Assembly: GCA_021525805.1 (NCBI GenBank)
Contig: GCA_021525805.1_3940.1
DNA length: 64,000 nucleotides
Strand: one strand, 5' to 3'
DNA from: a phage
Position 1 is the first letter of the stretch, and every line of letters begins with the position of its first letter. Shown here piece after piece: positions 14,901 to 15,127 of this stretch. The notes beneath the pieces are model-generated. The model saw only the letters and a list, made by a program, of their open reading frames with translations, did no database searches and had not been told where the DNA came from. Made by a program: the position numbers and the translations under genes.

Positions 14901-15002
14901 TAATCATCTTTGCAGTAGCTTATGTGGCTAATTATGTCGTCCCATGAGTGCCGATGAATTTCCTTAGCATGATTCTAGATTAGCTTAATAGGAAATGACT
15001 CT

Positions 15003-15024
15003 ACAGACCCTTTAGCAAGGTCTG
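15003..15024 (+). ncRNA. minimal box hairpin S5 (ACAGACC-CTTTAGCAA-GGTCTG)
   Basis: core of the box family with no insert. Confidence 0.4.
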
Positions 15025-15058
15025 CGTAGGTTACTGCAAAGATGATTTAATGGAAGTG

Positions 15059-15127
15059 TAGCAGAATGGTGATGCGGCAGACTTTTAATCTGACAGGCGA
15101 TGGGTTCGAATCCCTCACCTACAACCA
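15059..15127 (+). tRNA. tRNA-Lys (anticodon TTT), atypical: 5' acceptor strand not contiguous (possible pseudogene or insertion-containing gene)
   Basis: D-arm, anticodon arm (loop CTTTTAA), T-arm and 3' end ACCTACA-A-CCA present; only complementary 5' strand CGTAGGT lies at 15025-15031, separated by a 27-nt insert that is one arm of a 16-bp inverted repeat. Confidence 0.45.

Follow-up and report, generated by a model that had tools for sequence, protein, structure and literature searches.

The locus considered here lies in a 64,000-nucleotide stretch of phage DNA (GenBank assembly GCA_021525805.1, contig GCA_021525805.1_3940.1; hereafter the window) and raises the question of whether its transfer RNA (tRNA) gene for lysine with anticodon UUU, which ends at 15127, has been split within the acceptor stem. 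An initial annotation had observed that the 7 nt upstream of the D arm, GGAAGTG (15052-15058), cannot pair with the 3' strand ACCTACA, that the only complementary strand, CGTAGGT, lies upstream at 15025-15031, and that the intervening DNA begins with TACTGCAAAGATGATT (15032-15047), the exact reverse complement of 14902-14917. It proposed that a 27-nt insert between positions 7 and 8 needs processing, or else that the gene is a pseudogene, an intact Lys(CTT) paralogue being present at 16217-16292. We found all these strings in place, as well as the tRNA body with its CTTTTAA loop and its ACCTACA-A-CCA terminus; the acceptor is indeed mismatched, and ARAGORN also sees the intact Lys(CTT) gene. 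The answer to the question is nevertheless a different one: 15052-15127 is a Lys/Ile hybrid produced by a 158-bp deletion, not a tRNA with an insert. Taken jointly, we consider it highly probable that the locus combines two unrelated things, this deletion-made hybrid and an adjoining conserved plus-strand RNA with Y-like elements.

The window carries the tRNA cluster of a FelixO1-like phage (Felixounavirus), in which, according to ARAGORN, the plus strand from 13890 to 18723 holds 22 tRNA genes. A megablast search with 14500-15800 matched 300 phage records, nearly all FelixO1-like, with Escherichia, Salmonella, Shigella, Citrobacter and Klebsiella as hosts of these FelixO1-like phages; the best match, at 99% identity, was Escherichia phage JLBYU32. 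In the annotated genomes of JLBYU32 and fBSPA4, tRNA-Lys(ttt), tRNA-Met(cat) and tRNA-Ile(gat) stand back to back at the site, and a three-way alignment of these phages with the window leaves a clean 158-column gap in the latter. When the flanks were mapped exactly onto JLBYU32, 15052-15116 proved to be the same as Lys nucleotides 1-65, and 15112-15127 coincided with the 16 nt that close the Ile gene, CCA included. The Lys- and Ile-derived stretches overlap in CCCTC, which belongs to the T-stem 3' strand of both genes and sits within a 15-nt stretch identical at 13 of 15 positions between Lys (GGGTTCGAATCCCTC) and Ile (GGGTTCGATACCCTC). The 158 bp gone from the window comprise the 3' end of Lys, tRNA-Met(CAT) in its entirety and the first 59 nt of Ile.

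This arrangement accounts for the mismatched acceptor. In the intact Lys genes of relatives, which end in CACTTCT-A-CCA, GGAAGTG pairs with CACTTCT at all seven positions and is the true 5' strand; no displaced strand is needed, and the insert model fails at this point. The ACCTACA-A-CCA of the window is the 3' terminus of tRNA-Ile; the 5' strand that belongs with it, TGTGGGT, fell within the deletion, and GGAAGUG against ACCUACA forms three of seven pairs, where the JLBYU32 parent forms seven. Comparison with related genomes, which the initial annotation had itself suggested, therefore returned uninterrupted genes in the relatives and a mutated copy in the window. Because the Lys 5' acceptor strand now faces an Ile 3' strand with so few pairs, the hybrid is most likely a dead gene, which would leave the phage three tRNAs short. 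Thus the pseudogene offered as a fallback is supported in its outcome and mistaken in its mechanism, which is deletion and fusion, not insertion.

We propose that the ancestor carried tRNA-Lys(UUU), tRNA-Met(CAU) and tRNA-Ile(GAU) in tandem, the arrangement of every sequenced relative, and that recombination or slippage between the near-identical Lys and Ile T arms, with the crossover inside CCCTC, removed the 158 bp and joined Lys nucleotides 1-65 to an Ile tail of 11-16 nt. In general, tandem arrays give rise to hybrid and deleted tRNA genes when similar members recombine. The present case is like others of its kind in the T-arm crossover, in the in-register chimera of normal length and in the removal of the intervening genes, and as a single private event it has nothing unusual about it. 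It illustrates how easily tRNA genes can be lost through T-arm recombination in phage arrays.

Two points weigh against this account: mis-assembly at the repeated T arm may have occurred, the junction being read from the assembled sequence alone, and the hybrid passes both ARAGORN and the Rfam tRNA threshold, which leaves room for residual function. As to the first, the junction is absent from 249 matching phage records, all of which match as two pieces spanning ~294 bp, and it was not found in IMG/VR or JGI metagenome contigs; we take it to be confined to this genome, the less likely alternative being an assembly error. In the latter case the phage would possess intact Lys, Met and Ile genes, and the gap would stem from sequencing or assembly, for example a collapse between the T arms, where the breakpoints do lie in the 13/15-identical repeat. 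An imperfect repeat of 15 nt is, however, far too short for normal assembly collapse, and the junction is clean and in register. Moreover, the Felixounavirus tRNA region is a rearrangement hotspot, plastic in nature: the FelixO1 cluster (NC_005282) contains HNH endonuclease open reading frames (ORFs; 25030-25515 and neighbours), one of them exactly between tRNA-Lys and tRNA-Ile, the site of tRNA-Met(CAT) in other phages, and in further phages, too, the interval from Lys to Ile is occupied by HNH genes or other content. A true deletion also fits a Felixounavirus knockout screen in which phage tRNAs were mostly dispensable (PMC11482910). On balance we regard an artefact as improbable.

Still less probable is that the hybrid remains a working tRNA-Lys, through either a shifted register or tolerated mismatches. 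Its D, anticodon and T arms are identical to those of intact Lys, the discriminator and CCA are present, and the check with a tRNA finder proposed earlier did not end in rejection: ARAGORN calls tRNA-Lys(ttt) at 15051-15127. The call is made in a register shifted by one base, however, with the terminal CCA drawn into the acceptor strand, no 3' tail, and two A·A mismatches left. With the Rfam tRNA model (RF00005; threshold 29 bits), the hybrid scores 36.3 bits, the lowest of the 22 cluster genes, against 54.4, 54.3 and 63.4 bits for the intact Lys, Met and Ile parents in the relative. In the normal register only three of seven acceptor pairs form, and the minimum-energy fold has no acceptor stem and is not a cloverleaf. 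The case shows that tRNA finders still call such chimeras as genes.

The original model, in which CGTAGGT is the true acceptor strand, set off by a 27-nt insertion and processed to a working tRNA, has next to no chance of being right: CGTAGGT does match the 3' strand at six of seven positions (with a C·A at the end) and the 16-bp repeat arm does begin right after it, but GGAAGTG directly precedes the D arm in all relatives, ACCTACA comes from tRNA-Ile, and CGTAGGT is kept as the pairing partner of GCTTATG (14918-14924) in a covarying helix, becoming GGTAGCT or GACAGCT with compensation in phages whose tRNAs are intact. By our own estimate, a 7-mer with at least six matches occurs in a 200-nt neighbourhood with a probability of roughly 0.3. 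The complementarity noted for CGTAGGT is not confirmed in full, and neither is its role as acceptor partner. To our knowledge, no intron class occupies tRNA position 7/8. A split, interrupted or permuted tRNA was also considered and set aside, the relatives having the same upstream sequence before an intact tRNA-Lys. An Rfam search of 13500-19200 and of 14610-15060 gave no intron match; a group I intron in the tRNA was rejected on this ground and for the 114-nt interior, which we judge too small.

What, then, is the inverted repeat? It is genuine and well above what chance would produce: by our own estimate, ~0.002 perfect inverted repeats of 16 nt within a span of 150 nt are expected per 64 kb. 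It extends to 21 nt at 90% complementarity and to 23-24 bp with G·U pairs. Far from being part of the tRNA, as had been supposed, the repeat together with CGTAGGT constitutes the basal helix of a separate conserved structured RNA, which we designate module 3 (Table 1). The spacer between tRNA-Asp and tRNA-Lys in which it lies is 430 nt long, contains no ORF of more than 48 aa, and is conserved across Felixounavirus, Suspvirus and Mooglevirus. From nine sequences RNAalifold predicted a helix of 23-24 bp joining 14902-14924 to 15025-15047, in the inner part of which GCTTATG pairs with CGTAGGT through three G·U pairs. Three internal hairpins are found inside the helix.

Covariation of the basal helix was assessed on an alignment of the same nine sequences and L011, a locus from a relative at 64% protein identity whose basal stem sequence differs again from the other types. 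Of 24 aligned pairs, 97.5% paired overall, nine showed compensatory double changes; none of 500 shuffles came up to these figures, and no more than one such pair survived when the partner was slid by 1-3 columns. In about three quarters of the records, the match to the spacer stops after its first 297 nt, and from 14916 onward a strongly diverged FelixO1 type follows, in which both repeat arms have changed together (AATTATCTTTGTAGATAAG / CTTATCTACAAAGATAATT). FelixO1, L011 and the Yersinia phage locus L010 all keep a 23-25-bp stem of other sequence at the same place, and the mini hairpin of module 3 recurs in the FelixO1 type, L011 and L010. With its stem and "...AGCAA" motif, both shared with the E elements described below, this hairpin is a miniature of the repeated E motif. 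We also observed that the interior, the equivalent of 14916-15031, exists in two strongly diverged versions, the window type in ~60 records and the FelixO1 type in ~190, which share only the stem, UUCUAGAUU and the mini hairpin.

Several G·U pairs of the basal helix would be A·C on the opposite strand, and R3, a covariance model of module 3, gives the plus strand 180 bits and the minus strand 28 bits. The helix is therefore a plus-strand RNA and not a DNA palindrome. That the repeat acts in DNA, as the termini of a mini mobile element, a cruciform or a protein-binding palindrome, is accordingly very hard to maintain. The perfect 16-bp repeat and the two very different versions of the segment between its arms do look superficially like a cassette, but the arms change with compensation instead of staying conserved, and the window holds no target-site duplication, no transposase and no second copy of the repeat.

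Module 3 ends 4 nt before the 5' end of tRNA-Lys in the window and abuts tRNA-Lys in L011; in L010, an analogous long stem again stands directly before tRNA-Lys(UUU). Promoter-like sites were found only before tRNA-Pro (13743, 13834) and after the hybrid (15143). With no terminator between these promoters, module 3 should be in the tRNA operon transcript. It would thus be co-transcribed with the tRNAs, and cleavage by ribonuclease (RNase) P at tRNA-Lys would set its 3' end. R3 gave no match in L010 or in 75 distant loci, so that module 3 seems to be either lineage-restricted or too divergent for the model.

Farther upstream, four related elements, E1 to E4, occupy the spacers of the cluster. 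E4 carries a tRNA-like insert, and R1, a covariance model of the E4 unit, also found shorter copies with the same base and no such insert. All four forward occurrences of GGTCTGG in the 64 kb fall in E1-E4, each with an upstream GAAGACC. Each element consists of a 4-bp outer stem, an AGA/G internal loop and a 7-bp stem AGACCNN/NNGGUCU, followed by the motif UUNCAGCAA. The outer stems vary and yet stay complementary (UGAC/GUCA, UUAC/GUAA, GAGC/GCUC), and in the Yersinia phage E element the inner stem reads GGACUGU/ACAGUCC. Over ten E copies, 96% of cells were paired and eight of 11 pairs were compensatory. Two hairpins directly follow tRNA-Asp in 14625-14679, the first GAGAGGGCU-AUUU-AGCCCCUC and the second with 17-nt arms (14642-58/14663-79) and a UACG cap; both are conserved and invariant among relatives, and covariation is silent on them either way.

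Within E4, the outer stem (14767-70/14900-03) and the inner stem, AGACCGU (14774-80) with ACGGUCU (14892-98), enclose a succession of tRNA-like parts: a V hairpin (14805-20), a T arm GAAGG-UUCGAUU-CCUUC (14825-41), a closed 7-bp acceptor-like hairpin ACTCGAC-AGAT-GTCGAGT (14842-59) and, after the linker TG, a D arm GUGU-AAUGGUA-GCAC (14862-76). The mimic amounts to a tRNA lacking the anticodon arm, with a loop closing its acceptor stem (AS) and the arms standing in the order V-T-AS-D. By inspection, equivalents of the elbow nucleotides U8, A14, G18, G19, U54, U55, C56 and A58 are present. Between genera, the acceptor hairpin covaries fully: it is ACACG/CGTGT in Suspvirus and ACCCTTC/GAAGGGT with the loop GCCAAACA in Mooglevirus, where it reads G-CCA-AACA. 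In an alignment of seven mimics from distant phages, which, having been fitted to the model, is biased in favour of the structure, 16 of 28 pairs were compensatory, including all seven of the acceptor hairpin, and every helix showed covariation.

YrlA, a tRNA-mimicking Y RNA bound by bacterial Ro60, is defined by the same succession of V, T, acceptor-like stem-loop and D (PMC4201824). As in YrlA (RF02553), the whole of the E4 insert is enclosed by a stem formed from its flanks, the T loop (UUCGAUU in E4) is tRNA-like and the D loop contains GG. YrlA, which is bound by Ro60/Rsr and modified by TruB and DusA, is encoded within ~4 kb of a Ro60 orthologue on the same strand, and E4 lies 1.04 kb downstream of a gene for a protein of predicted Ro60 fold, likewise on the same strand. 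The acceptor hairpin of Mycobacterium smegmatis YrlA, named as the RNase P cleavage determinant (PMC4201824), has 7 bp, as does that of E4. The two also differ. In place of the YrlA motif GNCGAAN0-1G, E4 has the AGA/G loop, the AGACC/GGUCU stem and UUNCAGCAA; its partner gene belongs to Pfam DUF2828 and DUF7788 and is not TROVE by sequence; and it sits inside a tRNA operon together with three paralogues without an insert. Judged from its predicted structure, E4 may be regarded as a divergent YrlA-like RNA. The AGA/G loop, the AGACC/GGUCU stem and UUNCAGCAA may constitute a new protein-recognition motif replacing the canonical GNCGAA, and the AGA/G loop and UUACAGCAA are candidate determinants of protein binding.

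Two other readings of E4 were tried and rejected. A circularly permuted tRNA at 14825-14876 would have no anticodon arm, and its flanks form the E basal stem, the architecture fitting YrlA. Two adjacent tRNA remnants, the "dimeric tRNA" false positives of which Chen et al. (2014) warn (PMC4201824), are likewise disfavoured, since the acceptor hairpin covaries as a closed hairpin and true dimers in the window and in T5 reach at most 27 bits with model R2, against 139 bits for E4. In addition, AAGATGAT occurs twice, at 14879 and 15040; for the first copy, 14879-14891, ATCATCTT in the module 3 helix (5' arm, 14898-14910; a 13-nt inverted repeat, 85%) is a further potential partner, and the outer stem of E4 and the stem of module 3 overlap by 2 nt (14902-03). 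Alternative structures involving the 3' portion of E4 and the stem of module 3 could therefore form.

The neighbouring gene at 12309-13724 directly precedes the tRNA promoters on the same strand, and its product is Ro60-like by fold in the predicted structure. An AlphaFold2 model of the 471-aa protein, built from 38 homologues, had a predicted local distance difference test score (pLDDT) of 86.8, and the ten best Foldseek matches in the Protein Data Bank (PDB) were all Ro60/TROVE structures aligned over the full length (515-558 columns), with E ~1e-7 and template modelling (TM) scores up to 0.65. Thermus phage phiLo Ro60 (9KOP) was the top match, and Xenopus Ro60 and Deinococcus Rsr were among the others; von Willebrand A domains came next. 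The model shows the HEAT-repeat ring and C-terminal von Willebrand A domain expected of Ro60. At the sequence level, the protein matches only DUF2828 and DUF7788 and not Pfam TROVE, and phmmer against the PDB sequences finds no Ro60; the literature on DUF2828 yielded only incidental plant or tardigrade mentions. The search of Chen et al. was limited to proteins annotated as TROVE (PMC4201824). A DUF5681 ORF, at 11856-12227 in the window, always precedes the Ro60-like gene, and the pair is also found in the Yersinia phage locus L010 and in L011.

Phage Ro60 proteins with candidate partner RNAs encoded nearby have precedents. Mycobacteriophages, CcrColossus and Bacillus phage G combine Ro60 with Y-like RNAs (PMC4201824), and Thermus phage phiLo Ro60, our top structural match, is paired in the same way with Yrl1 and Yrl2 (PMC12135203; PDB 9KOP/9L5Y). 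All of these are recognizable TROVE proteins whose RNAs carry a CGAA motif, from which the window differs; the phiLo Yrl RNAs are also simple stem-bulge-stem structures with no tRNA mimic, whereas the window has a mimic in E4. Closest to the present case is gp130 of the Felixounavirus Bas63, for which structural similarity to Ro60 has been reported and whose gene lies directly upstream of the tRNA stretch (PMC11482910). Bas63 gp130 and the window gene share genus, position and Ro60-like fold, the likeness being one of position and fold. According to the same PhageMaP preprint, gp130 counters the "ppl" defence system, and some annotated tRNAs were there speculated to be Y RNAs, without any RNA being named (PMC11482910). 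The candidates of that preprint are annotated tRNAs, whereas ours are the unannotated spacer elements E1-E4 and module 3.

We ran R2, a second covariance model, on both strands of 1.07 Mb from 75 IMG/VR loci, each surrounding a homologue of 38-47% identity, and obtained 47 matches at E<=0.01, every one on the strand of the Ro60-like gene; 21 matches in 15 loci reached at least 40 bits, and many abut the gene. As controls, the T5 tRNA region did not exceed 20 bits, and 27 bits was the highest score among tRNA dimers in the window. Two of the distant members are picked up by the Rfam YrlA model below its threshold, at 40.9 bits (E 1.5e-7) and 38.9 bits (E 5e-5). In L013, a 143-kb contig, a homologue of 51% identity is followed by two full V-T-AS-D mimics (64 and 47 bits), and Vibrio phage phi-pp2 has one such mimic in its tRNA cluster. 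Among the same loci, the IMG/VR contig L034 carries a match to the GOLLD RNA at 3190-3657 (117 bits, threshold 150; E 4e-30), in a tRNA cluster ~4.3 kb upstream of the DUF2828 gene, in addition to an R2 tRNA-mimic match at 4585-4722.

Small structured RNAs are familiar from phage tRNA clusters, as with species 1 and 2 of T4 (rnaC, rnaD). These, and RNA1, RNA2 and RNA3 of T5, are co-transcribed with phage tRNAs and freed by tRNA-processing enzymes, as would be the case for the elements proposed here; neither phage is known to us to have a Ro60-like gene. The T5 record (NC_005859) annotates several "stable RNA" and "tRNA-like stable RNA" genes among the tRNAs of 30284-33949, and this stable RNA region has no match in sequence or structure with model R2.

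We propose that E1-E4 and module 3 would be Y-like RNA partners of the Ro60-like protein, cut out of the tRNA operon transcript by RNase P together with other enzymes of tRNA processing. From their architecture and linkage, E1-E3 and module 3 qualify as candidate companion Y-like RNAs, and we judge the prospects of actual binding and function to be about evenly balanced. Slightly more doubtful, and to be taken as tentative, is the fuller reading, in which the spacer elements form an array of Y-like RNAs (three of stem-bulge-stem type, one YrlA-like mimic, and module 3) that partner the DUF2828-type Ro60-like protein; the extension that the same array would serve the Ro60-like proteins of FelixO1-like and many other large phages is put forward with equal caution. 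If true, the elements would be RNA partners of a protein whose position is that of a counter-defence gene in Bas63.

Several observations weigh against this proposal. An Rfam scan of the spacer (14610-15060) gave no match to YrlA or to any other family at E<10. The gathering score of RF02553 is 69 bits, and E4 itself gives no match. The motif GNCGAAN0-1G is absent, by inspection, from 14619-14830. The Levitt 15:48 pair (A15:U48 or G15:C48) is not evident, position 15 being A and the base before the T stem A or C instead of U. With R3, no module 3 was found outside Ounavirinae-like phages, and a near-perfect duplex of 23-24 bp lying 0-4 nt from a tRNA 5' end is well suited to RNase III.

The last point leads to the strongest rival, in which module 3 is an RNase III duplex and the E elements are RNase E entry sites, mere signals for processing or stability with no link to Ro60. 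The E elements do lie in tRNA spacers with an A/U-rich single-stranded motif beside a stem, and such features, like long duplexes, are generally known from the substrates of these two enzymes. A processing signal, however, needs no closed-acceptor tRNA mimic with conserved elbow nucleotides. The mimic family, moreover, tracks the Ro60-like gene in distant phages, often abutting it and in some cases without neighbouring tRNAs, two of its members resemble Rfam YrlA, and the T5 tRNA cluster has nothing similar. We therefore consider this explanation rather unlikely on its own, although it is compatible with Y-like RNAs and the two are not mutually exclusive.

In either case, the tRNA cluster of FelixO1-like phages, which are widely used for typing and therapy, contains ~600 nt of conserved, unannotated structured RNA, including a mimic of YrlA type and a repeated stem-bulge-stem motif, beside a gene of predicted Ro60 fold. 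Where the 2024 Bas63 preprint guessed at nearby Y RNAs without finding them, E1-E4 and module 3 are concrete candidates with coordinates, structures and covariation. The occurrence of the same RNA family beside homologous genes in many uncultivated phages makes the question of binding partners for phage Ro60-like proteins directly testable.

Table 1. Features of the tRNA cluster and its upstream flank, in window coordinates
Feature	Position	Strand	Basis or remark
Gene of predicted Ro60-fold protein, 471 aa (Pfam DUF2828 + DUF7788)	12309..13724	+	AlphaFold2 and Foldseek; ends 1.04 kb upstream of E4
E1, stem-bulge-stem element between tRNA-Glu and tRNA-Met	14056..14133	+	models R1/R2, motif scan
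E2, between tRNA-Met and tRNA-Asn	14222..14291	+	R1 42.3 bits, R2 44.5 bits
E3, GAGC AGA AGACCAA AUUCAGCAA ... UUGGUCU G GCUC	14677..14759	+	RNAalifold, motif scan, covariation
E4, copy carrying the putative YrlA-like tRNA mimic	14767..14903	+	RNAalifold, covariation, covariance models
Module 3, ~150-nt structured RNA closed by a long basal helix, immediately 5' of tRNA-Lys(UUU)	14899..15051	+	RNAalifold consensus; single-sequence folds of four types; model R3
Basal helix, 5' arm	14902..14924	+	contains the 14902-14917 repeat arm
Mini hairpin CAGACC-CUUUAGCAA-GGUCUG inside module 3	15004..15024	+	RNAalifold; 2/6 pairs compensatory
Basal helix, 3' arm	15025..15047	+	contains CGTAGGT (15025-15031) and TACTGCAAAGATGATT (15032-15047)
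Hybrid tRNA-Lys(UUU)/tRNA-Ile(GAU) pseudogene, 76 nt, anticodon UUU	15052..15127	+	alignment with JLBYU32 and fBSPA4, exact flank mapping
Deletion junction, CCCTC microhomology (5 nt)	15112..15116	+	common to the T-stem 3' strands of Lys and Ile

Three further observations concern the region downstream of the hybrid. Immediately 3' of it, at 15143-15171, lies a near-consensus sigma-70 promoter, TTGACA-17-TATAGT (11 of 12 positions), which by its sequence probably marks a new transcription unit. At 15465-15546 there is a tRNA-like element without a D arm that ARAGORN does not call: its 7-bp acceptor stem CGGGGCG/CGCCUCG is followed by A-CCA, its hairpin GCGGU-CUUCUAA-ACCGC (UCU) resembles an anticodon arm, and it also has an extended variable region and the T arm GCGGG-UUCGAGU-CCUGC; in Rfam it gives only a partial match of transfer-messenger RNA (tmRNA) type at 22 bits. 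A second uncalled tRNA-like sequence, at 15691-15775, combines AUGGGAC/GUCCCAU, G and CCA with a T arm GGGG-UUCAACU-CCUC and stands directly 5' of the tRNA-Ser at 15786.

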